From NCBI RefSeq assembly GCF_035594765.1, contig NW_026943824.1, forward strand, positions 8,140,317 through 8,204,316: a stretch of 64,000 nucleotides of DNA, written 5' to 3'. Origin of the DNA: Anolis carolinensis (taxonomy: Eukaryota). The position numbers were made by a program, and so were the translations under genes. The notes beneath the pieces were generated by a model. It worked only from the letters and a program-made list of their open reading frames with translations. It searched no databases and was not told the origin of the DNA. Shown piece after piece: positions 6,681 through 29,800 of this stretch; the first letter of the stretch is position 1; each line of letters opens with the position of its first letter.

Positions 6681-9600
6681 ATGAGTGTCCCTGACTTCAC
6701 GCCAGACCCCGGGGGCGGCTTCTCGGAGGATGCCCCGCGGCCCCCAGTCCCCGGCGAGGAGGGGGAGCTGGTTTCCGCTGAGACTGGGCGCCCACCCAGC
6801 CACGGGGGCTTCTTCCACAGTGGGGAGGCCCTCAAGGCGGAGGCCACGCCCCGGCGGCCGGACCTGGACCTGGGCTACGAGCCCGAAGGCAGCGCTTCCC
6901 CGACACCCCCTGCCCTGCGCTGGGCCGGCTCCCTGCACTCGCTACTGGACGACCGGGACGGGACCCAGCTCTTCCGCAGCTTCCTACGGGAGGAGGGCTG
7001 CGCCGACCTGCTAGACTTCTGGTTTGCCTGCAGTGGCTTCCGGAAGCTGGCGCCCGGCGAAGGCAGCGAGGAGAAGCGGCTTAAGCTGGCCAGGGCCATT
7101 TACAAGAAGTACGTTTTGCACGGTGCTGGCGTGGTAGCACGTAGGGTCAAGCCAGCCACCAAGAGCTTCATCCGGGACTGCGTCCTGCGGCAGCTGGTGG
7201 ACCCGGCCGCCTTCGATCAGGCCCAGACCGAGGTTCAGGCTGCCATCGAGGAGCACTCCTACCCACTCTTCCTCAAGTCCGACATCTACCTGGAATACGC
7301 TAGGAGTGGTGGAGGAGGAGGGGGCTGCGGAGGCGGGGAGAGCCCCAAGGGCCCCTGTGGAGAACACAGCCCCGAGGGCAACGGGAAGAGCCTCCCAGGC
7401 TACCTGCCCACCCTCAACGAGGACGAGGAGTGGAAGGGCGAGGGGACCCCCGAGGGGAAGGGGAAAGGGGGCGTGTGCCGGGTGGTGGCGGAGGGCCCCC
7501 GAGACCCCCTACTGCCTCCCCCCTCCGGGTGCCTGACCCAGACGCTACGAAGGGAGACCGCTGTCCAGCAGGCCGCCCCCGGAGCCCCTCCCTCGGCCAG
7601 CAGCACTGCCGCAGTGGCCCCCAGGCGCTACAGCGAGGGACGGGAGTTCAGGTGAGAGGCAAGGGCTTGGCAGCATGTATCAATGTATGGAGGGAGCTGG
7701 GCTTTGGGCCACAAGGAGCTTCTATGGGGAAGAGGCCAGCCCCTTTCTCCAGCTTCTGAAAGAGGCACTCTCCAGCCCTTCTGTCTGAGTGCATTTCCAC
7801 ACAGCCATATAAACCAGAATATCAAGGCAGATAATCCACAATGTCTGGTTTGAACTGGGTTATCTGACTCAACACTGCCATATATCCCAGTTCAAAGAAG
7901 ATAATGTGGGATTTTATTCAGCTGTGTGGAAGGGGCCTGAGAGAGTGCTGGGGAGCAGCCAGTCCACTGCAACGGGGCTCATGGCTGTATTGGAAGGGTA
8001 GGAAGCTCCCCTCCCCTGAAATTGGTGATGGCATCATTTCCCCCTTCTAACACCGATGCCCCCTCTCAATGTGGGGGACAGGCCAGCAAGGCCCTCTCTC
8101 CCTTCCAGACTACTGTCCCTAGGATCCCAAAATAATAATATCCTGTCACTTGTAAAATTGTCAAAAATGACTCTATGAAAAGGAAACTTTTGGAGCCCCT
8201 GCTCTTCTCCTTGGCCTGCCGTCTCCCATTCTACCAGGCCTCAGCATCTGAAGGGGGGGGATGTATGCCAGTTGGAGCCTGACACAAGACGCACCCTGTT
8301 ACGGGGGGAGCCTTAGCTGGTTTGGACAAAAGCCCCCTTCTCCCTGGCTCCTCCCCATTGACTTCTCAGGCCTCTGGTTGTTTGCGGAGGCAGGACCCCA
8401 CTGTCACCTGTTCCTTCTCAATTGTGCACCAAATGTTTGCGGTAAAAATAGAACGCAGAGCGGAGGGCAGCATGCACTTTCCTTGTGTGTGCGTTTGCAG
8501 GCACACAATCAGCGGCCCTTTGAAAGCATGCCTTGGTCCACTTTTTTTGCTTTTGTTGCTCTCAAAGTGCTTCAGGAGCAAATCCAGATCTAAATGGCCC
8601 CAAGAGATTTGTAAACTGCAGGACTTAGAAGGGATGAGGGGGCAAAGGGGGGCTGAGATGGTTGGGATTCTTTCCAGGGCTTGGATTTTGGTGCCTGTGG
8701 GGCCTCCTTGGGATTATGAGGATTGCCCCAGGACCAGACTGGACAGAGCTGGGAAGGGGAAGCTGTGGGGCTGCTTGGACCACGGACAGCAGCCGGAAGT
8801 TACTATTATTTTGATGTTTATTATTATATTTTATGTCTGTTTATACCCTGTTTGTTCTCTCCACAAAGAGACTGAAAAGCATTTCAATACAATTTAAAAT
8901 CTAAAACATTTCAACAAGGTTGGGGCCTGGTGACCCCTTTTCCTGTCTGGAGGCAATTCTGTATCTCTGGGGTGGAGGGAAATCTAAGGGTCTGTTCCGG
9001 TTGAAATTGCCCAATGGATTTCTCAATGCGGGAGAACGGCCTCCCTGCTCAATTGCCCCAAGGAGGGCTTCCTCGGGAGCCTTTGGGCAAAGAGGTCCCC
9101 TTCCCAGAAAAGTTTCCTCCAAGAGACAAGCGATGCAGAAAGCCCTCTCAAGCCCTTCTCTGGCTCTGCTACCTCCCAGGGTCAAGCACAGTTGAGACCG
9201 GAAGATTGGGGGGCGGGGGACTCCAGATAGAACAGGCATGGACAAACTTGAGCCCTCCCTCCAAGTGTTTTGGACTATAACTCCCACAATTCTTAACAGC
9301 CTCAGGCCTCTTCCTTTTCCCCCTCAGCCGCTTAAGAGGCGAGAACCATCCTTCCCAGTCTCTGTTCGCTTTCAGAGGCACAAGACAGGCCCATGGCCTT
9401 GCGTTCGCCCTGTTTGGCTGGCTGTGGTCCTGGGGCCTTTTCCCGCGGCCTTACTGCCTCACTTGGCACAGGAGGAACCCGGCCTGGGCAAGAGAAGGGA
9501 GACTGTTCCAGAGTGTGGCCATCCAGCGCCTTCTCTGGGTGTGGGATGGACTGCCACCCTCGCTTTGCCTACGTGAACCCTTTTCTGATCGAGCAGCGGA

Positions 9601-12600
9601 GATAGAGGCACCCATTGGGGAGGAGGCCCTTTTGCCCCGTTGCCCTGACCCTGATGCATGCTCTTTGCCCTCTTCTGCCAGACCCAGTCCGTGGAGGGAG
9701 CCGGTGCACCCCTATTACGTCAACACGGGCTTCGCCTTGGCCCCGGCCGCCAGCGCCAATGACAGCGAGCAACACAGCATGTCCAGCGATGCCGACACCA
9801 TGTCCCTGACCGACAGCAGCGTGTGAGCAGGGCGAGGGGCGCATCGGGGATTGGGGTTGGGCCCATTTTTATGTAGACTGTGGATGAAACGGAGGGACAA
9901 TAACAGTTGAAGGCGAGGGGCTGCCAATGGAGAAGGTGTTACGGCCCTTCCTGGCCGTTCTGCCATGGAGTGCCCCTGACTCCTTCTTTCCTTGGCAGAG
10001 ACGGGATCCCTCCCTACCGACTCCGGAAGCAGCATCGCAGAGAGATGCAGGAAAGTGCCAAAGCCAACGGACGTGTGCCTCTACCTCACATTCCTGTGAG
10101 TGACCCTGGCCCAAGTGTGCCCCTCCATGGTCCCCCCCCCTTCTTCCATGGGGATGGCATAATGTGGGGCTCATTCCCTCTCTTTGCATCTTTTCCATGA
10201 AGCGTACTTACCGAATGCCAAAGGATATCCACGTTGAACCCCAGAAATTTGCTGCAGAGTTGATCCACCGGCTGGAGGAGGTCCTGAGGGACCGGGAGGC
10301 CGAGGCCAAGCTGGAGGAGCGCCTGAAGCGCGTCCGTGCAGTGAGTGAGGGAAAGGGGGCCTTGGAGGGCATGTCCCATGGGTTGGGGGCACTTCCTAAC
10401 TGTCTCCCTTCCCCTTCCCCTTGGGGTACCTCTCTCTGTGGCAAAGACTAGGGAGGCCATGGCTTTTTGCCCCTTGTCTGGCTTTGGGGGACCCCTCCTC
10501 TTGTTTCTCCAGACTCACTTGCTGCCTTTTTTAGGAGGAAGAAGGCGAGGAGCTGGAAATGCCTCTGGGCCCCTGTCTGGGGAGCCACAAAGTGCTCCTA
10601 CCCCACTTCGGCCCCCGTTGCTACTCTGAGGCCCCTCCCAGGGACGCCCATGAGGAGAACCCGGAGAGCATCCTGGACGAACACGTCCAGCGGGTGATGA
10701 AGACCCCCGGCTGCCAGTCCCCCAAGCCCCGCTCCCCAGACAGTGGCCTCGCTACGACCCCCGGCAAGCCCGCCCTCCACGGCCCCATGACAGCAATGGG
10801 GCCCTCGCTGCCCTTGGGGCATGGGAAACATGCAGGGAAAGTGGGCCCCAGGTTGGAGGGCGCTGGCCTGCACCACCACAAGCACGTCTTTCACCATGCG
10901 GCACATCATCACGGCCCCCTCAAGGCCAAGGAGCCGCCCCCCGCCGAGGCCGAGGGCCCCGGGGGACGTGGGGGTGGTGCCTTCGGTTGGGGCTTGGAAG
11001 GCGCCCACAAGCCCCGGCTCTACGGGGAGAGCGCCTGCCTGGACCCCGCAGCCTACAGGTGAGACATGGGAAAGCGGGGGGCTCTCGGAGGGAGGGCTGT
11101 TTATCCATGTGGGCCCCTAAGGCCTTGGGAGGGGAGGCAGCATGTCTCGGAGATGTGCCCCTGTCCCTTGGCCTTCACCCTCCTCCTCCTCACTCACTTC
11201 CCTGCAGCAGCAAAGCCGGTCTCCTCTCCAAGCGCAGCACCAAGAAGGGCGAGGGGGGCAAAGGAGATGGCTATGAAGTCCCTGGTTCACCAGAGGACGT
11301 GGAGAGGAACCAGAAGATCCTGCAGTGGATCATCGAGGGTGAGAAGGAGATCAGCCGGCACAAGAAGACCGGCCACAGGTGAGCCCCGAGGGGTGTGTGC
11401 ATGTCTATGTGTCTCCTGGGCCCAATGGCCAGGGCTGCAAGTCGCTGCGAATGTGGAGAAGAGCAAACCACAGACCACCTATTACAATGCAGTCTGAGCC
11501 CTGCCACATGCACAATGGAGGAAGTTCTTTTAGCAACACCAGGGGCACTCCAAGGCCAGCTACTGGTCAAATGACATTTGGTATAATGCCAAGTTTTTAA
11601 CTTTGTGTTTTTAAATACATTACAACTGTACTCTCGGTTCACTCCTGACACGATAAATTAAAATAAATGGCCAGGGCAGGAAAGGATCCTGTTGGAGAGA
11701 AGAGAAGATGTACATGAAGGAATGCAGCTGATATGTTAGAAAAGGGAATGCGAATGTCTGAAAAAACACATGGGATGGGAGTTGAGGGGAGGATCTTCTT
11801 GTACAGAAGTGGGGCAGCTCATGCCCAATGGATGTCCTCTGGGTGCCAAACATGGTGAACTCTCGGCTGGCGAAGATGGGAGGTCATTTCTGTGACATCA
11901 CCAGCATTGCCTTGTATTAGGGGGAGGGGGCTGTGTGTTGGGGTCACTGACAACTCTTCTCCTCCTTCCCTCTGTAAAGTTCCTCCGGCGTTAAGAAGCA
12001 GCTGGGCCATGAACTGGTGCGGCCAGCCTCTGTGGAACGCCCGGTGGCCCTGCACCCCTGGGTCAGCGCTCAGCTGCGGAACGTGGTGCAGCCCTCGCAC
12101 CCCTTCATCCAGGACCCCACCATGCCCCCCAATCCGGCCCCCAACCCCCTGACGCAGCTGGAGGAAGCCCGGCGGAGGCTGGAGGAGGAGGAGAAGCGGA
12201 CGGGGAAGGTCCCGGGGAAGCAGAGGTACAGGCTGGGGCTAGAGGGGGGCCGAGGGAAGGGGTCTCCCCTGGGGTCAAAGAGCTACCTTCCAGGACCAGA
12301 GGGGAGTGTCTTGGGGGCCGTAGTTGGCCTTGGCCCAGCATGCTTCCTCTCGTAATGGGTGTGAATGTATCTCCCTCTGTAAGGTCTCACCCATACAGCC
12401 CATGGCATATCTGGAGGATGCATAGGGAGAGTAGTCGCTCCTTGAGGGGCAGAGACCCTGAGTGCTCCTGTTCCCTGGATGGATGGATGGTTGTGTGTAG
12501 GCTCTCTCGGAGCAGAGCGGACGAACAAGCCCCCAGGATGGTGTCTTCACCAAGACCTTTCTTTCCCATTACTGCTTGTGCTGGGTTTGCCTGAAGGCCT

Positions 12601-13904
12601 GGCAAACACCTCCCCCCCCCCCCCCATAGACAGACAGGCTCCCTAGGGAGCCCCTGCCCTGCCCTTTCTTCCTTCTCCAGGGGAGAAAAGCTAACCTCTG
12701 AGGTTGTTCCCCAGGTATGTCCAGGAGGTCATCCAGCGAGGGCGCTCCTCCTCCTCCTCGGCCAGACCGGCCTGTCTGCCGGTCCTGAATGTGGTGCCCG
12801 CTGTCTCCGACCTGGACCTCTCTGCACCACCCGAGTATGTGCCCCCCTCCCCCTCTGAGGGCTCCCTCCCTTCCTGCTCTGCCATTCTGCCCTTGGATGG
12901 CCCCACTCCAGACGCATCTCCCCATCTGGTTGTGTGAGTCCATGTCTGAGTGATGTGTGATGGGGTGGGAGGTCCAGGAGGGGCTTCCCAGGCAAAAGGG
13001 GGCTGCTTTGGGGAAAGGTCGCCCACACTCCCTCCCCACACACCCCTCCTGGCCCTGGTCCTGAAAGGCAGCTCTGTTGGGGTCCCTGGGCAGCCAGATG
13101 CAGCTGCAGGCCTATTGTTCCAGAGCTGATGGGGCTCTCAGTCCAGCATGTGTCAGCTGTTCAGTGTCCTGATGCTCCCTCTGTGCCTTGCCTTTACCTC
13201 CAGGGGGAAGACCCAGAAGCGGCCCCCGCCGGCCCCCCAGCCGCCTTGCGACAACATTGTGGTGGCCTACTACTTCTGTGGGGAGCCCATCCCCTACCGG
13301 ACGCTGGTGAAGGGCCGCGTGGTCACCCTAGGCCAGTTCAAGGAGCTGCTCACCAAGAAAGGGAACTACAGGTGAGGAACAGGGATTGAAGGGTGACATC
13401 CGCCAGAGGCACCCGGCAGCTAGTTTTATCCACTGATATCTTAAAACTATTATTTTGATTTTATGTTATATGTGTTGACAGGGGTTGTTGTTATTATTTT
13501 AGGTGACTTGTTTGTACTTATGTACCATTTTTTTACCTGCTATATGTTTTATGTGCATCATAAGCTGCCAGAGTCCCTTCGGGAAGATGGTGACGGAATA
13601 TAAAGTTTTAAGTTTTTTAAGTTTAAGGGGCCCAGTGGGTCCTTAAGGGGGGGCCTAGCGCAATCCCATGGGGCAGGTGGAGGGGTCTCCCTCGCCTTTC
13701 TGGGGTACATTGTAGTTGCAAGGGGTCACCATCCTCCCCTTTGATTGGACCCACAACTCCCTCCCCACTTTCCCCAGGTATTACTTCAAGAAAGTGAGCG
13801 ACGAGTTCGACTGTGGTGTGGTCTTTGAAGAGGTGCGGGAAGACGAGGCCGTCCTGCCCATCTTCGAGGAGAAGATCATTGGGAAAGTAGAAAAGATCGA
13901 CTAG
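6681..13904 (+). CDS. AXIN1: Axin-1 (~900 aa, 10 coding exons)
   Basis: Exons 6681-7651, 9682-9822, 9999-10095, 10203-10340, 10535-11058, 11208-11378, 11980-12225, 12715-12834, 13204-13371, 13778-13904, all phase-consistent. Contains the tankyrase motif RPPVPGEE, the RGS domain, the GSK3 site [15 protein letters not shown], the beta-catenin site [15 protein letters not shown], and a DIX domain ending [10 protein letters not shown]. Confidence 0.97.
11480..11660 (+). mobile_element. Vingi-like LINE 3' end fragment
   Basis: Reverse complement of 23200-23360, which adjoins a Vingi-type RT fragment. Ends in ...CTGACACGATAAATT. Confidence 0.55.
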
Positions 13905-14584
13905 CAGCAGGGAGATCCAGGGGTGGGGGTCCCCTGGGGGTGCATCTGCCTTCCTGTTCTGGAGCACTGCAGTGAAGGGCAGCTACTGCTGCTGCTTCTT
14001 CCAAGTCTGTTATGAATGGGAAAGACCTGCATGGCACCCCTTTCCAAAATGGGAAGGGAGGGAGGGAAGGAAGTGGGGGGCTTGTGCACTTAGACCCCTT
14101 CCTGCTTTGGGCTTTGTGGGGCTCCCTCCTCATTGCCTCTGCCCTCAAGGGCTTTCCATGGGAGGCCTGGCCTTTCCTTCCTCTTAAAGGGGGCTCTTGA
14201 GGGAATTGGGAGGGGGATCTCACTGCTGCATCCCCCCATCTGCATTTGCATCACTGAGTGCCTTCAAACCACACAGCTCTCCTCCTCTTCCTCCTCCTCC
14301 TCCTCCTGGGTCTGAAGAAGAGGCTGTTTGGCGGCTTCCTCCCTTCCTTCTGGGAGGGGTTTTTAATGCGCCTGACCTGTCCGTCCGTTGCGGAGGGGAG
14401 GGGTCTTTGTTTCCCCTTTTTTCTGAAGGGGCTTCGGTTGTAAATATGTACATTTTGTAAGCAAAGCATCAGCTGCCAGCGGTTGGGCAGTTGGCAACTG
14501 GTGCCTCCAGGACATTTTTCACACTTCGACTTGTACAATTTTATCTTTTGAAAGGTACTTGGATAATAATAATAATGATAATGG

Positions 14585-14590
14585 AATAAA
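14585..14590 (+). terminator. Candidate AXIN1 polyadenylation signal
   Basis: AATAAA ~680 nt after the stop and just before the convergent PDIA2 3' end. Confidence 0.6.
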
Positions 14591-14768
14591 ACCCCACGTT
14601 CGAAGGGTTGCCCTCCGTGTTTACCTTCATTGGTGCCCCTTTCCCTTTGCTTCTATGGGGAGATGTGCCTGTGTGAGTTATTGGGGGGGGGGGGGGTATG
14701 CGGAAGAAAGGAAGCGGTGGAGCCATATCTTTTGCCAGAGGGATGGGTTTTATAGCTCTACTCAGGCC

Positions 14769-17700
14769 TTACAGCTCATCTCTTGGCTCCAGAGACTTCG
14801 CCTGGCCCTCCTCCTTCGGCTCCTCTTTGGGGGTCTCCTGGAAAAGGGGAGACCCAGAGTCCTCTGTAAGCAGCTTCGCTCTGACACTTGGCTGTTCCCA
14901 CAGCCATTCAGCATCACCTTCTGTCCCTCCTTGGATTGAATGGGGGGGGGGCTCTGCTTCTGCCTCTTGCACCCAGCCCCACTTTATCAGGGGAAGCCTT
15001 TCAAGCAGATTTGGGCCCTGAACCGAGGGGGTAGTGCCGGTACTTACTGGGGGCTTCTCTACAGGAGGGGTCTCTCCCCCATTTTCCAGGAACCTCAAGA
15101 GGCTGTCCAGGTCTCTGTCACCCCAGTATTCTGTCATCTAGGCGCGGAAAGGGGCGCACATCAGACCCTTGCCGTCGTATTGGGTTACCCCACCCACCAT
15201 CCCTCGCAATCCAAGTGCTTGGGCCTACCTCCTTTCCTTTTCCAGCAGGGAAGAAGTAGAGTGTTGGGAAGGCGCGGATGGGCAGCCCTGGCACCTCGTT
15301 GGCTGTGGCGTCCATCTCCGCAATGAGGACGTCCTGCCGACCGTCGAACCTCTGGCCCAGCTGCTCCCAGGCAGGCGCCATGGCCTTGGAGTGGGGGCAC
15401 CAGGGGGCGTCTGGGGTTGGCACAAGCACAGGCCCTTCAGTGACACCCTCTCCGTGGGGCCAGTCTAGGGATGAGGGACTCCAAGACCCAGCATTCTCTG
15501 CTGGCTGAGCTTGACTCTCCGACAAGGGGCAGCACCAGGGGACCTTGCTCTCCCCTCACAATAATGGACCCCTCCTTCCCCCATTAGGGGTGCCCACGGG
15601 CGCTCTGGTGTGGCGGAAGAGTGACCACTTACAGAACCTGACGAAGACATCCTTGCTCTCGTCCAGGGCCACCTGCTCAAAGGTCTGCCCCACCAAGGTC
15701 TTCACTGGCCGTTGATCCCAGTCGCTTGGGGGCTCCTCGCTCATAAAGTGGGGCTGAAGGACGGAGCCAAAGCAGAGGGTTGGGGCAGAGGCCCAGAGCG
15801 CTCCTCAAACGCCAGAGGCAGAAGCACAGAGGGACAAATGCCTCCAAAACTTAAAGTCCTCTCCTTGCCCCGGTCTCCAACCCCCCCCCCAACCCCTGTT
15901 TCAACTGCTCCCCACCTGGACTCTGCCTTCTAGCACATCCTGGCAGAAGGTGCTGATGTCACTAGCGGAGAGGTCCCGCCCTTGCTCCATGTCCAGGAGA
16001 TACTTCTGGTTGGTCTCAATGTGAATGAACCGAAGGGCAGGGACCTGATGACTCTTCAGGCCGAAGAAGTGGAGCAGGCTGGCCCCGTCCCCACCAACGT
16101 TGGCCAACACAAAGAGCACCTGCAAATTGGGGGGGGGGGGGCAGCCTTGAGGATTGAGTCCTCAATAGCCACCCCCATCCCTACAGTAACGGCAATGCAA
16201 TAGCCTCAGAAGGGTAGCAGGGGGGCTCACCTGGTTCCGGAAGGTGGGAGCCGCTCCCCGGAAGCCTTCCAGAAGTGCCGAATGGGGCCCCTCCGTCTTG
16301 TTGAGGAAGAGTACCAGGTGGTTTGGGACTTTGGCCCCAAATATCCTGGAGGAGTTCTGCGGAGGACAGTTCAGGGGACAGGGTGAGCCTGTGTGCCATG
16401 GGGGGGAGGGGTACCAAGTCCCGCCCTGCCCCAGCTCACCCCCCCCCAACTCAGAGAAGCATAGCTAGCAACTGTTTGCCCACTTCCAAGACCTGGTTCG
16501 TGAACTCCACCACCGGCTCCAGGCTCTGCACCGCAAGGAAGTGGGCCAACTCTGCCTCATCCAAGCCCAGCTCCTCATCAATGAGGAAGTCCACTCTGGG
16601 GGCATCGCTGCCCTCCGTGTCCTGGGGAAGGTGCGAGGAGAGAAGGGCCTTTAGGGTCAGGAGGGAGGCCAAGGATCCCGTCCTACACAACGCCATACAC
16701 GGGGGACACCCTCCTTGTGGGGCTCCAGCCTCACCGTCCACCGGAAGAGGGCTACTGTCTCCCCCAGGACGCCGTACTTGTCAAAGAGGGCCGGGCGGTC
16801 AGTGAGGGCCACGGTCACAGTGTCGTCATCCATATCGCAGGCCACCTTACAGAAGAGGCGAGCTTCCTGGCCCTCTGGGTCCTGAAAGAAGGGCAACTGA
16901 AGAGTGAGCACATGCTCCTTGTTCTCCAGAGCCCCGGTCGTTGGCTCCCGAAGGCGCAAGACTCACGTGAAAGAATCCAACAGCAGCCACCGGATGGGTG
17001 GCCAGGAAGGCTGTGGCCTCCTCCTCCCCGGTGAGCAGCGGGGCGCTGGGTTTGGCCTTCCGCCTCATCCAGGCCACAATCGCCTCGGCCTCCCTCTCCC
17101 CTGGACAAGAAGGCACGGGTCAGGGGGCTGCACGGGGGGCGGGGGCTGCAGTGGGTGCCCTTGGGTTGGAGGGGGCTCACCTTTGTAGTCTATGGGGTGG
17201 CTGCGGTCTCCCTCCCGGAAGAGCTTGAAGGCAGGGAACCCAGCAACGCCAAACTCCTGCCGCAGCTCTGGCTCCTGCGTCCCATCCACCGACGCCAGCC
17301 TCAGGGAGCTGCTGGACCTCTCCTCTCTCAGCAAGGCGGCCGCCTTGGCATATTCGGGGGCCAGTGCCTGGCAGAGGTCGCTCCAGGGGGCATCTGGCGG
17401 AGAGAAGGGGCCGCCCCAAAGGAGGCACTGGAAGAGGCATGGTGGCGGGGGAGGGGGCATTCTCCCCATGAGCCTCATGCCAGGCTTGGGCCCAGCAGCC
17501 ACGCAGGCACTGTTTGCATGGCTCCTGACCGCGGCAAGGCTTTGGAGGATGTTTGCTTTTCCAAGGTGCCCTGATACGCCTTTGTGGCACTCAGCGGCTG
17601 CCCGACAGGAACGGCATTAAGGAGCGGTCTGTGGGAGAAGGACCGGACCTCAAAGCCAGCAGCAGGCAAAGTCATTCCCACCCTTTTTTTATCATGTCAG

Positions 17701-18280
17701 AAGCAACTTGAGAACATGCTGCAAGTCACTTCTGGTGTGAAAGAATTGGCTGTCTCCAGAGACGTTGCCTGGGGAATACCCTGATGTGTTACCATCCTGC
17801 TGGGGGGCTTCTCTGATGTCTAGCTGACAGATGGAAACTCACCCTGTCTCGCAGATTTGAATCGGCAACCTTCAGGTCAGCAACCCAACCTTCAGGTCAG
17901 CAGTCCAGCCGGCACAATTACTGCACCCTGGCTTTTTTCCCACCCCAGTGGCCCCTCAGAAAGAGACGGGGAGGGGAGAATGGTGCAGACCAACCCCTCC
18001 CTCGCTCCCACTCCCGATGCCCCTTTGCCAACTCACGGAAAAGCACCAGGAGCAGCCGGTTCTCCTGCAAGGCCTGTGTAAAGCCCTGCTGGTTGAGGAC
18101 CAAGACCTCTTCCTCCTCCTCCACCTTGAGGTCAGGTTCTCCAGAGAGGGTTCTCCCTTCGCTGGGCCCTTGCTGCCCCTCTGTGGGGGTCAGCGTCTCC
18201 TGAGTGACTGCTACTCGCACCCAAGACAGGGTCAGCCATGGGATCAGCATCAGAGTCATCCATCCAGGGAAGTGGCCCAT
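14769..18280 (-). CDS. PDIA2: Protein disulfide-isomerase A2 (PDIp) orthologue, ~552 aa, 11 exons, with degenerate active sites
   Basis: Exons (minus strand) 18280-18037, 17393-17181, 17100-16967, 16881-16735, 16621-16493, 16356-16231, 16119-15916, 15753-15633, 15410-15229, 15137-15048, 14837-14769. Has a signal peptide, a-b-b'-a' thioredoxin folds ([33 protein letters not shown]) and C-terminal RDEL. Convergent with AXIN1 as in human. Confidence 0.93.
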
Positions 18281-18872
18281 GGTGGAGTCAGCCCAGGAGG
18301 AAAGGCGTCCAAGGAGGTACTGGAGCCAGGAGACGCCAGGAAATGATGGGAGGGAGGGAGGGGCCCAGATAAGGCTCAACTGTGGCCCCTCCCTATCCCC
18401 ATAGTTTCTTCTGGCCCTTTGCCACAGGCTGCTCCCTTCCTTGGAAGGACAAAAGTGAGAGCTACATCCTTGGCCTGCATCTCTTGGGGGTGTCCATACT
18501 TGGCGGTGTCCAGTATAAGTCCACACTACCACATAATCCAGTTCAAGGTGGATTTTAAACAGCTGTGTGGAAGGGGCGTGAGGCTTCACAGATCTACACT
18601 GTGATATAATTTAGACTATCTGCTTTGAACCTGATTATAGGAGTCCACACTATGGCTGTTGCTATAATTCTATTTATTTATTTGCGACATTTATATCCTG
18701 CCCTTCTCACCCTGAAAGGGACTCAGGGTGGCTTACAAGTTATATGTACATACAATATATCCTATTATTAGTATAGAACAATATAAGCACTATCCATTAC
18801 TATATTGTACTATACCATTATATTGCAATATTATTAGCAATATTACATGCAATATATAATATACAATTATAA

Positions 18873-19075
18873 GGTTAAAGGTAAAAGGTTTTCCCCTGAT
18901 ATTAAGTCCAGTCATGACCGACTCTGGGGGTTGGTGCTCATTTCCATTTCTAAGCCAAAGAGCCGGTGTTGTCCGTAGACACCTCCAAGGTCATGTGGCC
19001 TGCATGACTACATGGAGTGCTATTATCTATTGATCTACTCAAATTGGCATGTTTTCGAACTGCTAGGTTGGCAGG
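18873..19075 (-). mobile_element. Sauria-type SINE (partial)
   Basis: AAGGTAAAAGGTTTTCCCCTGA...TTGTCCGTAGACACCTCCAAGGTCATGTGGCC, the reverse complement of the other copies. Confidence 0.75.
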
Positions 19076-19143
19076 AGAATATACAATTATAATAGTGTAT
19101 TATTATATTGTATTACATTATAATATTATCAATATTATATGTA

Positions 19144-19946
19144 CAGTAGAGTCTCGCTTATCCAACCTTCACTTATCCAACATTCTGTATTATCCAACAC
19201 AGTTTGCCTTTTAGTAGTCACTGTTTTTGTAGTCAATGCTTTCAATACATTGCAATGTTTTGGTTCTAAATTCATAAATACAGTAATTACTACATAGTGT
19301 TACCTTGTATTGAACTGCTTTTTCTGTCAACTTGTTGTAAATCATGATGTTTTGGTGCTTAAATTGTAAAATCATAGCGTAATTTGGCATTTAATAGGCT
19401 TTTCCTTAATCTCTCCTTATTATCCAACATTTTCGCTTATTTATTTATTTCTTTACAGTATTTATATTCCGCCCTTCTCACCCCGAAGGGGACTCAGGAC
19501 AGATTACAATGAACACATATATGGCAAACATTCAATGCCAACAGACAAACAACATACAGTATAGACAGACACAGAGGCATTTAACATTTTTCCAGCTTCA
19601 CGATTTCGGCCACAGGGGGAGCTGTTGCTTCACCGTCCACTAATGGTTGTACTTCCTCATTCCTTTCCTCGTGTTTTGCTGGCAGTTTTATGGTGTTGTA
19701 AATTAGTTAAATTAGCCTCCGGCATAAAGCGTACCTAAATTTCCCTACTTGACAGATGCAACTGTCTTTTGGGGCTGCATAGGTCAACAGCAAGATGGGC
19801 TATTTAATGGTCGGGGGCTTAACCCGACCCGGGCTTTGAACTCATGACCTCTTGGTCAGTAGTGATTTATTGCAGCTGGTTACTAGCCCGCTGCGCCACA
19901 GCCCGGCCCAACAGCCCATTTATGTTGGATAAGTGAGACTCTACTG
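19144..19946. mobile_element. Tc1/mariner MITE with a nested SINE/L2-tail element (~19441-19905)
   Basis: TIRs CAGTAGAGTCTCGCTTATCCAA / TTGGATAAGTGAGACTCTACTG with TA flanks. Confidence 0.75.
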
Positions 19947-20523
19947 TATATACAATATATGATATTATTAGTATAGCATAATGCTAGTATTATATATATT
20001 ATTATATTGACATAGGAGACAATGTGTTTATTGTTTTTATTCTTCTGTACTGTTTTATGTTGCAGTCTGGAGTGCTTTAGTAAGCCACCCCGATTCCTTT
20101 TGGGAAGATAGGCGGTGAGATACAAATAGTTATTATTATTATTATTGGGGGGGTGTATCCTTCAGAGTTGGAGTGGGGGGCTCTGGGCCCCTTTGGCCGT
20201 GCCGGCCATGAAGCACACTTTCCCGCTTTCCTGGGTTTCATCCCAGAACTAGGGGTTTGGGGGTTAATAATAATAATAATCTTTATTCTTATACCCCACC
20301 TCCATCTCCCCAAAGGGACTTGGGGCGGCTTACATGGGGCAAAAGCCCAAACAAATACAGTAAGGAACATAAAACACATCAAACAGCAAAAACCGTGCGC
20401 AAAAGGAATAAACATTAACATAGAAATAGCAAAAAAATTGGTTAAAACATTTTAAAATACAGTGATAAAATCATAAAAACAACTGGGCGAAAGCGTGCTA
20501 AGTGTGTTTTGTAGACATGAGGT

Positions 20524-20830
20524 ACACTAGTCTCACTTATCCAACGTTCTGGATTATCCAACGCATTTTTGTAGTCAAAGTTTTCAGTGCATTGTGATAT
20601 TTTGGTGCTAAATTTGTAAATACAGTAATTACTACATAGCATTACTGCGTATTGAACTACTTTTTCTGTCAAATTTGTTGTATAACATGATGTTTTGGTG
20701 CTTAATTTGTAAAATCATAACCTAATTTGATGTTTAATAGGCTTTTTCTTAATCCCTCCTTATTATCCAACATATTTGTTTATCCAATGTTCTGCCGGCC
20801 CATTTATGTTGGATAAGTGAGACTCTACTG
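20524..20830. mobile_element. Tc1/mariner MITE
   Basis: Same family TIRs; the left end is slightly degenerate. Confidence 0.75.
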
Positions 20831-21154
20831 CAGTTATTATTATTATTATTATTGAGGGGGGTGTATCCTTCAGAGTTGGAGTGGTCCCCTTTGGCTGTGC
20901 CAACCATGAAGCACACTCTCCCGCTTTCCTGGGTTTCATCCCAGAACTTGGGCTTTGGGGGGTTGTAGAAGGACTCCTGACAAGGAGCCCCCCCTTCAAG
21001 GCTGCACTGTCCTTGATTGTGCTTTGACTGACCTCTGGGTTTCCTTCCAGAACTGCCTTCTAGAACCCGGTGCCGTTCCATGGAACGCGTAGTCCAGTTC
21101 TGGTGCCCTTTGAGAATCCCCCATTGACCTCTGGGCCCATTGCTGTGGTCAGCC

Positions 21155-21863
21155 ATGGGGGCAGGGGGTGAGGCACTGCGAAGAGGGGAGGGAAGGGGGC
21201 CCAATTCAGCCAGCCTCATCCAAGTAAGCATTTCCTCTGAGTCTATTTTTCCTTGCAGGGAGCAAATGTGTGGGGCCTGGAGGAGCCCTACCTCGAAGCC
21301 AGGTAAGTTGGAGCAGGCCTGGGCCAACTTGGGCTCTCCCTCCTGGTGTTTTGGACTTCAACTCCCGCCATTCCTAACCGCCTCAGGCCCTTTCCTTTCC
21401 CCCCTCAGCCGCTTAAGCGGCTGAGGGGGGAAAGGAAGGGGCCTGAGGCGGTTAGGAATGGCGGGAGTTGAAGTCCAAAACACCAGGAGGGAGGGCCTAA
21501 GTCCTATCCCTGTCCTTCAGGAGGAAGAGGAAGGCGAGGAGGCGGCCTTAATGGAGGCGTCGGGGGCCTCGTTGCTGCACGTCTTGGCCCAGAAGGGCGA
21601 CTGCGAAAGGGCCCTGCAACTCCTCTCAAGAGGCCCCAAGGAGGCCCTGCTCCGACGCCAGGTATCCATCATGGCGACTGTTGTTGTTGACTTGGTTGAT
21701 AACCCGCCCTGACCCCTCGCTGACCCCTCTTTCCTCCTCCTCAGGACGCCTCAGGCCGGACGCCGCTCTTTTGGGCCACCGAGAACCGGCGGAAGAGGAT
21801 GGCGGCGCTGCTGCTGGAGCACGGGGCAGACCCCGGCGCCAGGGATCACGTGAGCAAAGGGAG

Positions 21864-21904
<41 letters not shown>

Positions 21905-24900
21905 TTAGTTGTCATGACGACCACCCCCTCCGAGACCCCTCGCTTCCCATTCGCTCTTTGCCAAACGAGGCCCCGCCCCTAACGCCAGGCCCCGCCCCCT
22001 CTGCCTTGGTCTCCTCAGGCTGGGAACCTGTGCCTGCACCGGGCCGCCTTCGTAGGCAGCGCCCGCCTCGCGCGTCTCCTGCTGGACGCCGGCTCCGACC
22101 TGAACGCGCCCAACGCGCGCGGAGAGCGCCCTCTGGCCTTGGCTCGGAGGCAGCGGCGCCCCAAGTGCCTCGCGTGAGTGAGTCCAGAGGCAAGAGCGGG
22201 GAGGCGGGGCTTCCTGAGCAAGGGGCGGTTCCAGATGGCCACGCCCCCTCCTCTTCCCCTCCCTCCCTCCCTCCTCCAGGCTGCTTCTGTCGCTAGGCGC
22301 CACCCCTTCGCCGAAAGACCCGCCTCCTAGGATCCTCTGCAGGTGAGGGAAGTTGGGCGTGGCCACGGACAGGGGAGGGGCTTGTTCGGCAAACAACAGC
22401 AAACCCCGCCCCCTCTTAAAGGGACATCTCTCGCGGCCTGGAGGCCCTGCCTATCCCCTGCCTGAACGGCGTCGACGATGAGCGCGCTCCCGGGGACTTC
22501 CTCTACGTCACGCAGAGCCTTGTCTCGGACTCGGCGGAGGCGCCCCCTGGCGGGTGGGCGCGCAGGCAGGTCAGATGTCAAGGGGAGGGGGAGGCGGCCT
22601 GAGGCTGCTAGGAATGGTGGGAGTTGAAGTCCAAAACACCTCAAAGGCCCAAGTTTGCCTCGACTTTGGCCACGCCCCCTCCGAAAGAAGAGGCGGGCAC
22701 TCTTCCTCTTCCTTCTCCTCAGCGCTGCTCCTGCGGACCCGTCTGCCCCGCCCCCGACTGCTCCTGCTTGCTCCGCTCCGGCCGCAGCGCTGCCTGTTAC
22801 TCCCCGGTGAGAAGCCACGCTCCGTTCCTCTTGGGGGCGTCTCCTCGTGAGCCTGCCCGTCCCTGACCCCGCCCCTTTTGTTCCCCGCAGGAGGGCCGCC
22901 TTCTCCTATTGGACGCCGACGTCGCGAACGCCCTCTGCGAGTGCCACCTACTCTGCTCCTGCGGCAGCGCATGCGCGAACCGCGTGGCCCAGAGCGGGCT
23001 CCGGTGAGAGGGCACGCCCCCTGGCAGGGGAGGCCCCGCCCCCTGGCACCCCCTCAGCCAATGAGGCCCTCTCTCTCCCATCCTTTTGGCAGGACTCAGC
23101 TGCAGCTCTTCCGCTCCGCCGAGAGGGGCTGGGCAGTGCGCGCCATGCAGGACCTGGCTCCCGGCGCCTTCCTCTGCCAGTGAGTCCCTTCCTTGGCTGG
23201 TTTGTTTGTTTATCGTGTCATAAGCGAACCCAGGGTATTTAAAAGCACAAAACAAAGTTATACTAAATGCCCTTTGACAAGTAGCTGGACACGTCAGTGC
23301 CTCTGGTGTTGCTATGAGAAGGTTCTCCAGGGTGCATGTGGCAGGGCTCAGGCTGCATTGTATAATATTATAATGGAATACAATATAATACTATTAATAA
23401 TACAATATAATAATATTAATTATATATTATATATTAAATGCAATATTACTAATAATATTACCATATAATGATATAGTACAATATAGAAATTTAATGCTTA
23501 TATTGTGCTATGCTAATAATATATTGTATGTTCATTTGATTTGTAAGCCGCTCTGAGTCGCCTTCAGGGTGAGAAGAATGGGATATAAATGTAGTAAATA
23601 ATAAATAAATAAATGTAATAGGTGGTCTGTGGTTCACTCTTCTCCACTCTTGGCATGCCTTCCAAGTCGCCCAGTCTTCTGTGTGCCCAGGAGGGAGTCT
23701 CTCATCTGGTATCGGCCACTGATTGAGGTTCCAGCTTTTAGCCTGCCACTTTTGGATTCTTGCTTGCTGAGGTGTTTCCTGCCAGTATCTCTGTAGATAT
23801 TAGGAAAACTATTTCTGGATTTAAGGCGGTGGTGGCTGATATCCAAACATTGGGTATGCGCATTCAGCAGCAGAGCAGCCAAGCGCAAGAGCAGATGCCT
23901 TCACGGTTTCTGGTTGTGATCCCCAGGTTGTGCCAGTCAGCTTTCATATGATATTAGTTCTAGCATCCCCTTTTTGCTTGATAGTCAAGCAGTGCTTCTC
24001 GTAAGTCAGAGCACGGTCTAGAGTGACTCCCAAGTATTTTGAGGTGCTGCAATGCTCCAGCAGGATTCTTTCCTAGATCATCCTCAGAGCTCAAGATGCT
24101 TGTCTGTTCTTAAGCAGACATCTGCAATTTAGATGGATTAAGGATCAACTGGTTTTCCCTGTAATGGGCCAGGAAGACATCTTTCCACCATGTCTCCTTT
24201 ACCATCAGATGGGAGCACTCTCCCCCCCCCTGCCCCCAAGGTCTAACTGCCATTCTGGACCGGAATGAAGAAGGCGGGGCCAGGAAGACATCTTTCCACC
24301 ATGTCTCCTGTATAAATTTAATGATATAATAATATTATAATATATTGTATATACATGTAATATTAAAAATAATATGATGTAATACAATGTAATTTGATAT
24401 ATAATATGATGTAATACAATGTAATAATTATTATATTCACTATTATAATTGTATATTTATATTACATGCAATATTACTAATAATATTGCAATATAGTCGT
24501 ATAGTCATAAGAACCCCGGTGGCGAAGTGCGTTAAAGCACTGAGCTGGAGACTGAAAGGTCCCAGGTTCAAACCCCGGGAGCGGCGTGAGCAGCCGCTTT
24601 TAGCTCCAGCTACTGGCCAACCTAGCAGTTCAAAAACATGCCAATGTGAGTAGATCAATAGGTACCGCTCCGGCAGGAAGGTAACGGAGCTCCATGCAGT
24701 CATGCCGGCCACATGACCTTGCCGGACAACGCCGGTTCTTCGGCTTAGAAATAGAAATGAGCACCAACCTCCAGAGTCAGACATGACTGGACTTAACGTC
24801 AGGGGAAACCTTTACCTTTTTATATTAATATTATAATATATTGTATATACATGTAATATTAATAATATTATGATGTAATACAATATAATAATTATAATTC

Positions 24901-26421
24901 ACTATTATAATTGTATATTTATATTACATGCAATATTACTAATAATACTGTAATATAATAGTGTAATATAATATATTATATGTATGTATATACTTGTAAA
25001 CCGCTCTGAGTCCCCTTCGGGGTGAGAAGGACGGGATACAAATGTCGCAAATAAATCTATATATATAAAAGAGTGATGGCATCAGGGCAGCGGACAAAAC
25101 AACAAAACTACAGGCCCCCCAACCTCGAAATTTGACAACACAACCCATCATTCACGGCTCTAGGTTGATACAACAAAAAGAAAAGTAAAATAAAGTCCTA
25201 GTTACAGGGAGAGGAATAATAGTTTTTATCCAATTGCTGCCAGTTTGAAGGCTAAGCTCCGCCCATTTGGTCTCCTAGCAACCTCCTCAGCCCAGGGGAC
25301 AGGCACAGTTAGGCCTCACTTAGGCCTCTTCCACAGATTATCAGATTTTAACTGAATTATATGGCAGTGTAGACTCAAGGCCCTTCCACACAGTTATATA
25401 ACCCATTTAGAATCTTATATTATCTGCTTTGAACTGGATTATCTTGACTCCACACTGCCATATAATCCACTTCAGTGTGCATACTAAACATAAAGACAAC
25501 CATACAACAGACATTCAATACCATCACTACCTCAACAATTTCTCACCAACACCACCAGACAACGCCACAGCAACGCATGGCCGGTCACAGCTAGTAAATA
25601 ATAATAAGAGACCAAAAGCTTTGGAGAGTTTCTGTTCAACCATGTCAATGTTCCCTGCTTGAGCAGTGATGGCACAATCGTCAGCATAGATGATTTGAAG
25701 TTGAAGTCCAAAACACCTGGAGGGCCTAAGTTTGCCCATGTCTGGTCTAACCTCCTCCCTGCCTCATTCGCAGGTACTTTGGGGAGCTGGTCTCCGAGGA
25801 GGAGGCGCGGAGGAAGGAGGAAGAAGAGGCTGCCCCTGGCTACTGCTTCATGCTGGGCGCCCAGGTGACGTCACCCTCCCACTCTAGGCAGCGGGTCCCT
25901 CCTCTCCTCTCCTCTCCTCTGACCTCACCTCACCTCTCTCTCTCTGTCTCCCCCTGGAGGTCGGGCGCGGGTGCTGCCTAGACGGCCGTCGCTATGGCAA
26001 CGTGGCCCGCTTCTTGAACCACTCCTGCCGTCCCAACTTGGTGGCACTTCCAGTCTTCACGGGGCTGGAGGTCCCCGGAGTCGCCTTCTTCGTCTCCTCG
26101 AGGGGCATCCGGGCCGGGGAGGAGCTGGGGTGAGGAGGAGGCGTGGCTTCCACGGAGGGGCGTGGCCACGGAATCGAGGGCGGGGCCACCAGCGTTTGCC
26201 TTCTTTCCAGGTTCGACTACGGAGACGACTTCTGGGCGGCGCGACTGAGCCGAGGGATGTCCTGCCACTGTGGGGAGGCTCTCTGCCGCTTCCCTGCTTC
26301 TCGGGAAGCCCCGCCCCCTCAGGAAGCCCCGCCCCGCGGCTTCGCCTTCAAGACCCTGCGCTGCCCGGCTGAGAGGCAGGGAAAGGGGCGGGGACCTGTT
26401 GTAGCCCCTGCGGGCCAATAA
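21155..26421 (+). CDS. Unnamed EHMT (G9a/GLP)-like lysine methyltransferase: ~3-4 ankyrin repeats + pre-SET + SET + post-SET, ~474 aa, 13 coding exons
   Basis: Exons 21155-21167, 21259-21302, 21521-21661, 21745-21849, 22019-22173, 22280-22342, 22422-22569, 22723-22806, 22891-23003, 23093-23179, 25774-25864, 25960-26129, 26211-26421 total 1425 nt, open and phase-consistent. Motifs: TPLFWATE, NLCLHRAAFVG, DISRGLEALPIPCLNGVD, 9 pre-SET Cys, RGWAVRAMQDL, YFGELVS, YGNVARFLNHSCRPNL, GEELGFDYGDDFW, CHCGEALC. The two 5'-most exons are less certain than the rest. Confidence 0.88.
21315..21498. mobile_element. Palindromic hAT-type MITE (related copies or fragments at ~9233-9337, 22596-22660, 25695-25745, 26490-26667, 35404-35560, 62658-62795)
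   Basis: Near-perfect hairpin centred on CCCCTCAGCCGCTTAAGCGGCTGAGGGG, with arms GTTTTGGACTTCAACTCCC / GGGAGTTGAAGTCCAAAAC. Confidence 0.75.
21868..21900. repeat. (AG)n microsatellite
   Basis: Read directly from the sequence. Confidence 0.95.
23200..24170 (-). mobile_element. Vingi-like LINE RT/3' fragment, interrupted by an AT-rich L2-tail SINE (~23365-23612)
   Basis: Minus-strand translation includes KYLGVTLDRALTYEKHCLTIKQK...KLTGTTWGSQPETVKASALALGCSAAE, typical of ingi/Vingi-clade RT. Confidence 0.6.
24511..24819 (+). mobile_element. Sauria-type SINE
   Basis: tRNA-like head GGTGGCGAAGTGCGTTAAAGCACTGAGCTG...AGGTTCAAACCCC, conserved body, ACCTTT tail. Confidence 0.85.
25056..25594 (+). 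mobile_element. Non-autonomous Helitron
   Basis: Starts TC and ends CTAG, inserted between A and T, with a GC-rich subterminal segment GCATGGCCGGTCACAG. Related copies at 43039-43527 and 44916-45371. Confidence 0.75.
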
Positions 26422-26422
26422 A
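26417..26422 (+). terminator. AATAAA overlapping the TAA stop of the EHMT-like gene
   Basis: CAA TAA A: the stop codon lies inside the hexamer. Confidence 0.55.
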
Positions 26423-26873
26423 CGCCTGTTGAAGGAATTCGCCGGAGAGTGCCCGCCTCTTTTTTCGGAGTGGGCGTGGCCAAAGTTGAGGCAAACTTGG
26501 GCCTGTCAGGTGTTTTGGACTTCAACTCCCACCATTCCTAGCAGCCTCAGGCCCTTTCCTTTTCCCCCTCAGCCGCTTAAGCGGCTGAGGGGGAAAAGGA
26601 AAGGGCCTGAGGCTGCTAGGAATGGTGGGAGTTGAAGTCCAAAACGCCTCAAAGGCCCAAGTTCGCCTCTAGGAATTGGGCCTTCTCTGGTTGAGCCAGA
26701 ACAGGCCTCCTTGGCAGCCCCTCACTTGGGCCAGGCCTCTCCCCTCAGGTTGATGATGATGATGATGATATGAGAGGCTGCGTTGGCGAGGGAGGGCCGG
26801 CAGGGGGCAGCTGAGAGGCCTCCACTTCCTCGGCTGGAGAACCCTGCAGAGCCTCCTCCTCCTCTTTTGCACC

Positions 26874-29800
26874 ATGACCATCAGCGCCCTCCGCCCCGGA
26901 GCAGGGGGCAACTCCCGCCTGCAGCTGCCCTGCCTGGCCAAGGCAAGATGGGGACAAGGGGTGGGGGACATGCGGAGGGAATTGCTCCCCCAACCTTGGA
27001 TCCCTGCCTTCCTCCCTCCATCTCTCCCTCTTGGCTTCCTTTGCAGATGGAGCGGGTGGTGGTTGGCATGCAGGACCCAGACATGGGCGTCAAGGTGCGC
27101 AGTCAGCGCCTCCTCATCACCGTCATCCCCCACGCCCTTACTGGTAAGCAGGGTGGAGGGAAAGGGGAGAGCAGCAGCAGCCCCTCCCCTTTCCTATAAC
27201 CCCCTGACTTGGCCCCTTCTCCCCCCAATTAGGGAGTGACATTGTCCAGTGGCTGGTCCAGAAGTACGCCATTTCCGAGGAAGGTGAGCCCTGGTGACTC
27301 CTTCCCCCTTCCCTGGGCCCATAACCCTTGTTGGGAAACGTGTTAGGCTCAAAATAATCCTCACTTGGGGCAATTCCACCATAAATATAGCAGATTACCA
27401 GAAGTGGTGGCACAATGCGTTAAAGCACTGAGCTGCCGAACTTGCGGACCAAAAAGTGCCAGGTTCAAATCCCGGAAGCGGCTTAAGCGCCCGCTGTTAG
27501 CCCCAGCTCCTGCCAACCTAGCAGTTCGAAAACATGCAAATGTGAGTACCGCTCCAGTGGGAAGGCAACGGCGCTTCATGCAGTCATGCCGGCCACATGA
27601 CCTTGGAGGTGTCTACGGACAACGCCGGCTCTTTGGCTTAGAAATGGAGATGAGCACCAATCCCCAGAGTCGGTCACGACTGGACTTAATGTCAGGGGAA
27701 ACCTTTACCTTTACCCTACCAGAAGTAAACTTCGTAACCAGCAAAAGGATTCTGGGCTGGCCTGCCTCGGACTCTCTGTACTTCCAACAGGACTTTGGTA
27801 ACTGACTTCCATAGTAAATGACTGACGTGTTGCCTATCTTTTACTGCACTTTATTCCTTAGCCAGCCATAGTTTCCCTTGTTTATGCCTCCCCTAGCACT
27901 TTAATTGGGACAATAGTTTTGGTATTGTTCCCCCCCCCCCACCCACCCATTGTATCTGACACTACTGACACTCTCTTTGGCCCAGTTCCTTTTAGGAGCC
28001 AATCCAGGATTTTATCAAAGTACAGTATGTCTATTTTATGTGACCTTATTAGTTTTATGATTTGTTTTATTGTTGTGTTTTGTATTTATTTATTTACAGT
28101 ATTTATATTCTGCCCTTTTCACCCAGGGCGGATCACATTATATACATATAGGGCAAACATTCAATGCCCATACACACATAGAACCGAGACAGAGACAGGC
28201 ACAGAGGCAATTTAACCTTCTCCTGAGGGGATATTCGATTCTGGCCACGGGGGTGAGCAGCTGCTTCATCATCCATTGTGACGGCACTTCCTCATTCCAA
28301 CGTCGTAAATTAGTTAAATTTGCCTCCCCACTTTATAAGTGGTACCTTATTTCCTACTTGATAGATGCAACTATCTTTCGGGTTGTTAGGTCAGCAACGA
28401 GCAGGGGCTATTTTTTATTTTTTAATTGACGGGTGCTCACCCTGCCACGGGCTGGCCTCGAATTCATGACCTCATGGTCAGAGTGATTTATTGCAGCAGG
28501 CTGCTTACCAGCCTGCGCCACAGCCCGGACCCATGCCTTTTTGGCCTGGGCTTGGCCCCATGTAAGCCGGCCCGAGTCCCTTCGGGGAGACGGGGCGGGG
28601 TATAAAAATAAAATTATTATTATTATTGGGGCCCTTCCTGCCTCCCTGCAGAGGGTCCCTTCAGGACACTGCAGGGCCGGGATCTTGTGTGCCCCCTTTA
28701 CCCTTCTCTTCTCCCCCCAAATCCAAAGAGGCCCTCCACCTGGGCAACCTGATTGTGCGGCATGGCTACATCTACCCACTGAAGGACCCCCGCAGTCTGG
28801 CCCTGCGCCCAGATGAGACCCCCTACCGCTTCCAGGTGAGTCGGAGGGGCTCCTCCAGCGCCACCCCCAGAGGCCGTTGGGCTTCGACGAGGGGGACACA
28901 ACATGCACAGACACCCCTTTCTACCTCTGTTGCCCACAGACGCCCTATTTCTGGATGAGCACCAAGTGGCCGGCCACAGAGCTGGATTATGGTGAGCCCC
29001 CACTCCCAGCCCCTGTGTTTGGGGGGCAGCAGGGGAGAGTGAGGGTTAAACGCTTTGAGCCATAACTAGTCCTTCTCTTTCCAGCCATCTACCTGGCCAA
29101 GAGGAACATCCGGAAGCAGGGGGAGCTCATTGGGCATGAGAAGGTGGGCAGCCCATGAGAGTTGGGGGGCTGCAGTGCCAAGAAGGGGTGGAGGCGTCTA
29201 TGGGTCTGACATGCCCCCTCCCCCTACCCTTGGGCACCTTGCAGGATGACTACAATCAGCTGCACAAGAGGATCAACCACAGCTGGGACTTCGTGGTCAT
29301 GCAGGCCAGGGAGCAGCTCCGGTGAGTAGTACTCCGTATCTACCAACTGGAGTGCCCAGCATCCCCACCCCATTGGCAGTGGAAGAGGAGGGGAGCTGCC
29401 ATGGCCACACAAGGGTCTTTGGGAAGCTGGGGGTGGAGATGGCATCCCCCCAATCCCCTCTTCTCTCCTCTCCTGCTTCTCAACAGGGCGGCCAAGCAGA
29501 GGCGAAAGGGTGACCGTATTGTCATCGAGTGTCAGGAGCAGGCCTATTGGCTGGTCAACAGGCCCCCCGTGAGTGAATTATTGGGGCGGGGGGTGAGGGA
29601 GGGGGGCAGGGATGCCCTTCACCAGCAGCACCAGTTGCCCCTCTCTGCTGATTTTGTGGGGGGGGGGGGGGATTTGCAGCAGCTGAGACAAGGTTGCTTG
29701 ACCACCATCCCTCTTGCCCTTGAGTCCCATGGTACTGAGAGACCAGCGATCCCGTAATGTGGAGGTGCTCTTGTGGATATGGATGGGGGGTGTCTCTGGG

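Follow-up and report, generated by a model that had tools for sequence, protein, structure and literature searches.

A shortened EHMT1-like gene of Anolis carolinensis with a conserved candidate N-myristoylation leader

G9a (EHMT2) and GLP (EHMT1) are textbook nuclear writers and readers of H3K9 methylation, enzymes that mono- and dimethylate this residue and dimerize through their SET domains. An EHMT-like gene in a 64,000-nucleotide stretch of the Anolis carolinensis genome (hereafter the window) raises the question of whether an enzyme of this descent can begin with a signal for lipid attachment, as an earlier note on this DNA had proposed, and what it would then be doing. Our results favor a model in which a squamate duplication of EHMT1/GLP gave rise to this shortened gene, whose MGxxxS(K/R) leader is likely myristoylated, yielding a membrane-bound lysine methyltransferase with likely targets other than H3K9. 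We place the probability of this reading, which is built from sequence comparison, at about 0.6.

The anatomy of the gene can be read directly from the window. An open frame runs across 13 exons and 12 GT-AG introns, from an ATG at 21155 in a strong Kozak context (tcagccATGg) to a TAA at 26419-26421 that overlaps an AATAAA at 26417-26422. The encoded protein of 474 residues opens with MGAGGSKC and carries ankyrin, pre-SET, SET and post-SET parts in that order. The parts of the gene and the short upstream open reading frames (uORFs) are as follows.

20906-20968, plus strand: second uORF, in frame, found in the window upstream of the main ATG
21080-21127, plus strand: uORF of 15 amino acids in the frame of the main ATG, with a weaker context (ttccATGg) and a stop 27 nt before the main ATG
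21155-21167, plus strand: exon 1, coding portion, with codons for M-G-A-G plus the initial base of codon 5; donor gtgagg
21168-21258, plus strand: intron 1, 91 nt, GT-AG
21259-21302, plus strand: exon 2, 44 nt, acceptor ccttgcag, donor gtaagt; residues 5-19, including Ser6, Lys7 and Cys8
21521-21661, 21745-21849, 22019-22173 and 22280-22342, plus strand: exons 3-6, ankyrin repeats matching the last GLP repeats (Ank_5, Ank)
22422-22569, 22723-22806 and 22891-23003, plus strand: exons 7-9, pre-SET
23093-23179, 25774-25864 and 25960-26129, plus strand: exons 10-12, SET domain (PF00856)
26211-26421, plus strand: exon 13, FDYG, the post-SET cysteines and a basic tail that contains RGFAxK[S/T], a motif of the family

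Exons 1 and 2 join in phase (1 + 2) to give MGAGGSKCVGPGG, followed by a phase 0 splice into the exon at 21521-21661. The earlier note had proposed the start, the donor after 21167, the 44-nt exon and the fit of their phases, and every one of these coordinates checks; the short uORF that it placed at 21080-21127 ahead of the ATG is also real. If intron 1 is kept in the mRNA, the frame reads MGAGGEA, Ser6 is lost and a stop is reached at 21424. Farther downstream, the acceptor at 22421 (tcttaaag) is weak. The Sceloporus model has an N-terminal extension to which the uORF stretch aligns only in a different frame (score 43, reached by 1 of 1000 shuffles). The stretch thus behaves as 5' UTR, and the extension itself looks like translated UTR. 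A likeness between the uORF start (MER) and the Lerista extension was dropped, since at least 56 of 1000 shuffles were as good.

Several other features of the window deserve mention. A palindromic element of about 180 nt occurs at 21327-21502, in intron 2, and at 26488-26669, just after the poly(A) signal, with a part copy at 22582-22661; its arms of 88-91 nt are 96-97% complementary, and its very high contig depth indicates a genome-wide repeat. Upstream of exon 1 lies a local duplication of about 110 nt (20148-20263 and 20856-20961) with repeat insertions between the copies, and the translation of 37265-37813 looks like the last part of a reverse transcriptase ORF from an RTE-type LINE. The CpG observed/expected ratio is 0.68-0.81 in the gene body (21500-23000 and 26000-26500) versus 0.28 around the start codon, and an internal promoter could explain the existence of SET-only gene models.

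The window sequence alone is only modest evidence for the motif, because direct translation of its ATGs produces MGxxx[S/T] in 28 of 1908 cases and MGxxx[S/T][K/R] in 4 of 1908, and because a splice was chosen. The case for the candidate motif is carried by its conservation in predicted orthologues. Six genera contribute the 9 orthologue models, out of 17 with ankyrins, in which MGxxxS[K/R] appears: seven have it at residue 1 (two each from Podarcis, Hemicordylus and Tiliqua, so that both copies of the latter two genera keep it, and one from Gekko) and two have it internally (Sceloporus at residue 44 and Lerista at residue 25). When the window is compared with one model from each of the six genera, all seven sequences share Gly2 and Ser6 and have Lys or Arg at residue 7, and columns 8-19 each hold 3-6 different residues. 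Residue 5 is Gly, Glu or Ala in all seven, and the codons of all three residues begin with G, which fits a shared phase-1 intron. A 15-codon segment ending in Gln, equal in length to exon 2, is present in Sceloporus, Podarcis, Hemicordylus and Lerista and lies internally in Crotalus and Ophiophagus. The window copy and Sceloporus differ at a single position within the first 11 residues.

The motif is absent, as annotated, from the other 8 of the 17 models (two snakes, Rhineura, Eublepharis, Sphaerodactylus, Pituophis, Paroedura and a partial Varanus model). All orthologue N-termini are those of gene models, many of which miss first exons. Both snake models begin MGLN-GEA, which is what reading through the donor gives in the window, and an ESK...RQ segment, 15 codons long like exon 2, follows later in each. 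Together these observations suggest the same splice, and the true snake start may be MGLNESK. In Paroedura the ESK segment is present and MG is absent, and the N-terminus of the Rhineura model is unrelated. Four more short models without the N-terminal half (P0001, P0002, P0035 and P0038) were left out of the count of 17; among them is the closest model, from Anolis sagrei, which comprises 179 residues of SET domain only. MGxxx[S/T][K/R] was found in 0 of 215 unrelated proteins, which are mostly unnamed ankyrin proteins and a poor control. The Met in AALMEASG, which the earlier note had named as a rival start, was also considered and was rejected, as it is not conserved at that place in the orthologues.

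The leader also agrees with much of what is described for N-myristoyltransferase (NMT). In the available text of one review, Gly is absolute, Pro or an aromatic residue does not come next, Cys, Ser or Thr is favored fifth once Met is removed, and Ala, Asn, Cys, Gly and Ser are listed as the fourth residue; Glu5 of Podarcis and Hemicordylus lies outside the residues listed there (PMC4692089). The window fits these rules with Ala3, Gly5 and Ser6, a Gly directly after Met and an in-frame stop upstream. NMT also prefers Lys7, and a Cys next to Gly2 fits dual acylation. The earlier note had paired its myristoylation motif with a candidate palmitoylation site and had named Gly2, Ser6 and Cys8 as residues whose conservation should be checked. 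Its first half stands on Gly2 and Ser6, but Cys8 is found in only 2 of the 7 genera, the window and Sceloporus, both iguanian, so palmitoylation is probably not a family trait. Nor is there a consistent second membrane signal of another kind at the N-terminus, because the net charge of residues 2-21 ranges from -2 to +4 across the family.

The gene belongs to a family that databases name only 'EHMT1-like'. Its SET exon is 91% identical to the Anolis sagrei protein of that name, and the Varanus and Hemicordylus proteins, used as queries, retrieved ankyrin/pre-SET/SET proteins of 460-590 residues that score above true EHMT1 and EHMT2 and are all squamate, from geckos, skinks, a cordylid, lacertids, an amphisbaenian, an iguanian, a monitor and snakes. 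The best match of solved structure is GLP (E 5.6e-88) versus G9a (1.6e-81), and the Hemicordylus ankyrins match 3b7b at E 5e-58. The paralogue family groups with EHMT1 with SH-aLRT support of 98 in one tree and 94/96 in another, on a long stem of 0.77-0.98 changes per site; a grouping with EHMT2 is rejected (p-AU 0.003), and an origin before the EHMT1/EHMT2 split is not rejected (p-AU 0.058). A first tree, rooted with SETMAR, placed the paralogue outside EHMT1 and EHMT2, which we read as a long-branch effect. The later trees used unnamed, more distant G9a-like proteins as the outgroup, with SETMAR, Colius, the window and some paralogue rows dropped. The window copy is fast-evolving, with the longest end branch in the family (0.62), and its ankyrin part is about 35 residues shorter than in other squamates.

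The presence of introns, together with an EHMT2 isoform (P0032) whose splice into the ankyrin array falls where intron 3 lies in the window, fits a duplication of the 3' half at the DNA level; the other introns presumably match those of EHMT1. In a profile search against 1.84 billion representatives, in which long ankyrin proteins crowded the results, the only short members among the best 150 were P0026 and P0039, and the 25 ankyrin-SET matches examined were ordinary long G9a/GLP-like proteins, which points weakly to a restriction to squamates. The family is a candidate squamate innovation, spread across geckos, skinks, lacertids, iguanians, monitors and snakes. We found no paper on it in the open-access literature, a search that left most subscription journals outside, and a term search of the accessible text of a study of squamate gene loss returned no mention of EHMT or of the neighboring genes (PMC13005343). 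A Y-linked EHMT1 copy of basilisks, on a chromosome resembling chicken 17, is described in the available text of PMC8622242 and is a separate matter. Two species carry two copies each (Hemicordylus P0022/P0023 and Tiliqua P0019/P0025), which lie on equally long contigs, form sister pairs (100/99 and 100/98) and are likely independent tandem duplications. Outside squamates, at least seven divergent EHMT1-like proteins that lack ankyrins occur in the mousebird Colius striatus (P0041 and P0097-P0102), an independent expansion.

The gene sits between PDIA2-like and RGS11-like genes (18400-26900). A thioredoxin-domain (PDI-like) gene lies upstream on the minus strand, an RGS gene lies downstream with a FAM234 gene beyond it, and an AXIN-like gene occupies about 6700-13900; we take the neighbors to be AXIN1, PDIA2 and RGS11. 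In mammals the place between PDIA2 and RGS11 is presumably held by ARHGDIG, and a scan of 14000-28000 with RhoGDI motifs, too crude to show loss, revealed no convincing remnant of that RhoGDI-like gene.

Kept and altered residues of the enzyme itself bear on its activity and its targets (G9a numbering, set from the C-terminus of P0032). Tyr1067, Asn1112, His1113 and Cys1115 are kept in 17/17 family sequences, the zinc cysteines are kept, and Tyr1154 and the three post-SET cysteines are present in all 14 sequences that have the last exon (Phe1152 in 13 of them); Tyr1154 is essential in G9a, as the available text of PMC8541646 describes. The surfaces that hold histone H3 are altered. Three aspartates at 1074, 1078 and 1088 surround and hold H3 Arg8 (PMC3741215, in part), a residue essential for G9a (PMC8541646, in part). 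Asp1078 and Asp1088 are replaced throughout the family (17/17, with Glu at 1078 in three) and Asp1074 in 16/17; the eight EHMT1/2 controls have Asp at these positions in 8/8 (1074), 8/8 (1078) and 7/8 (1088). In the ankyrin methyl-lysine cage of Trp839, Trp844, Glu847 and Trp877, where a single mutation abolishes H3K9me2 binding in vitro according to the available portion of PMC4255711, Trp839 is Arg in 17/17, Trp877 is Arg in 4/17 including the window, and Glu870 is also changed in the window copy. These residues suggest a methyltransferase that is likely active but with changed specificity, and the loss of the H3 Arg8 aspartates and of Trp839 lends support to the idea, raised in the earlier note, of non-histone substrates. 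By its fold and probable descent the protein counts among the EHMTs, but it is better not classed with the H3K9 writer-readers, because the N-terminal region, the H3 Arg8 pocket and the reader cage all depart from theirs. Structure prediction with AlphaFold2 (12-sequence alignment) gave a mean pLDDT of 52.5, with only the ankyrins well modeled and pre-SET and SET mostly below 50, so that its low confidence at residues 1-30 says nothing firm.

These observations can be joined into a sequence of events. The 3' half of EHMT1 would have been duplicated at the DNA level and then passed through a burst of change, as the trees suggest, with the long N-terminal half replaced by the two-exon MGxxxS(K/R) leader. 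Ribosomes may scan past the weaker uORF, or reinitiate after it, to start at 21155; Met would be removed, and NMT, by its known rules, would acylate Gly2. A second membrane signal might come from Cys8 in iguanians and from the basic tail elsewhere. The SET domain would then methylate lysines of membrane-proximal proteins. Without Asp1078 and Asp1088, the Arg-Lys rule of G9a/GLP would presumably no longer hold, and with Trp839 changed to Arg the ankyrins would be expected to stop reading H3K9me1/2 and may recruit another partner.

The tail is the part of the protein that can be read in more than one way. Its net charge is +5 to +13 in 15/17 paralogue rows, versus -2 in the EHMT1 and EHMT2 controls, and RG[F/Y][A/S]x[K/R][S/T/P] occurs within it in 15/17 rows. 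The narrower form RGFA[L/F/H]K[S/T] followed by basic residues is seen in the window (26211-26421) and in P0001, P0014-P0025, P0035 and P0038, EHMT1/2 being without it, and Podarcis has RKS at that place. The motif might serve nuclear import, bind membranes or be a target of self-methylation. In the first case, a myristoylated protein might act inside the nucleus, on its envelope or within condensates, with the tail driving import and the lipid tuning location or partners. We consider this unlikely, although it survives better than the other alternatives: besides the tail, it fits the unsteady second membrane signal at the N-terminus, and it has a precedent in myristoylated EZH2, which forms nuclear puncta and acts on STAT3 according to the part of a review available (PMC11464301). 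However, a basic stretch can equally serve as a second membrane signal, as the accessible text of PMC8621972 describes for PRMT8, and both H3-binding surfaces are changed. The iguanian Cys8 beside Gly2 likewise fits dual acylation.

RNA from the anole bears on the preferred reading of a lipid-anchored enzyme from another side. Contigs from four of the 24 listed runs of this organism were aligned to 20870-23300; one run (X2) behaves as DNA, with an adapter loose end and no GT-AG joint, and read depth was not used for ranking gene parts. Contigs of the other three (X5, X10 and X12) join 22806 to 22891 at GT-AG, removing intron 22807-22890, the X5 contig joins 23003 to 23093, removing intron 23004-23092, and an X10 contig runs on past 23181 for 91 letters, as many as exon 11 has. 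These joints indicate that the 3' exons are transcribed and spliced. At the 5' end, intron 1 is crossed unspliced (X10 at 20870-21346, X12 at 20870-21350 and X5 at 21147-21365), as are intron 3 in X10 and X12 and intron 6. The 21167-21259 junction, which the earlier note had asked to see in RNA, is not among 15 of 21 joints in the contigs of the four runs; its absence there is not proof, because contigs drop rarer forms and the runs may hold DNA.

This pattern, with intron 8 spliced in three runs and introns 1, 3 and 6 crossed, could mean that the anole copy is decaying or makes mostly unspliced or SET-only products, so that the full-length myristoylated protein is rare or absent in this species. 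The long end branch, the lost ankyrin residues, the weak acceptor at 22421, the changed cage residues Glu870 and Trp877 and the SET-only A. sagrei model all lean the same way. Against it stand the uninterrupted 13-exon frame with its 12 GT-AG introns, the full set of catalytic residues, the near identity to Sceloporus over the first 11 residues, and the inability of such contigs to prove absence, and we regard decay as rather improbable. More improbable still is a soluble, divergent methyltransferase that escapes myristoylation and keeps its N-terminus for another purpose, be it the context of the start codon, signals for splicing, acetylation of the N-terminus or a motif for binding. In its favor, the +4 G of that context comes from Gly2, a splice site falls within residue 5, the Rhineura N-terminus is unrelated and myristoylation predictions yield false positives (PMC4692089, available text). 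Against it, the context constrains just one base of codon 2, its first, and does not demand Gly, and Ser6 and Lys/Arg7 lie inside exon 2, the kept columns being exactly those that NMT reads.

A bolder version of the lipid-anchored reading is possible but speculative. The protein would be a third EHMT that works off chromatin, follows a hydrophobic-Lys rule, has membrane signaling targets and uses RGFA[L/F/H]K[S/T] as a self-methylation mimic to switch between membrane and nucleus. The SET domain of the paralogue, small, testable and probably altered in specificity, could help to show what is encoded in the acidic groove of G9a/GLP.

Comparison with known systems helps to place the candidate. 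EHMT1/GLP, together with EHMT2/G9a, is alike in the order ankyrin/pre-SET/SET/post-SET, in the catalytic Tyr, in NHxC and in the zinc ligands. In contrast, G9a is 1210 residues long and the paralogue about 470-530, lacking the N-terminal activation region, the acidic and Cys-rich parts, the nuclear signal and the ankyrin repeats that come first; the nuclear signal of G9a sits in its N-terminal part, as the available text of PMC8541646 describes. In the paralogue only about 35 residues precede a partial ankyrin array, whereas EHMT has seven repeats, and the paralogue differs further in its new leader, its basic tail, the replaced H3 Arg8 aspartates and Trp839, and a deletion of three residues at HQDLRFP. 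SETMAR and SUV39H share pre-SET and SET but have no GLP-type ankyrins; SETMAR proteins appear as weak matches, and enzymes of this group score far below GLP (E 7e-41 versus 6e-88).

Two systems come closer in function. Myristoylated EZH2 is likewise a SET lysine methyltransferase with a non-histone partner, STAT3, but in the accessible part of the review it is an ordinary H3K27 enzyme that stays nuclear, its lipid promoting condensates (PMC11464301); in the paralogue the motif would be a gained leader on a dedicated duplicate without the histone-binding residues. The closest functional analogy is PRMT8, a paralogue of the nuclear PRMT1 that an N-terminal myristoylation motif and basic residues bring to the plasma membrane (PMC8621972, in part), and the squamate protein would be its lysine-methyltransferase counterpart. 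The two differ in fold and in the residue that they modify. PRMT8 methylates arginine, shares about 80% identity with PRMT1, acts on similar substrates and has been shown to be acylated, whereas the squamate paralogue belongs to the SET enzymes, shares 42-47% identity with vertebrate EHMT1/2-type proteins over about 425 residues and has a remodeled substrate groove. If the lipid-anchored reading is true, squamates hold a natural experiment in which a chromatin enzyme became a membrane signaling enzyme, in parallel to PRMT1 giving rise to PRMT8.
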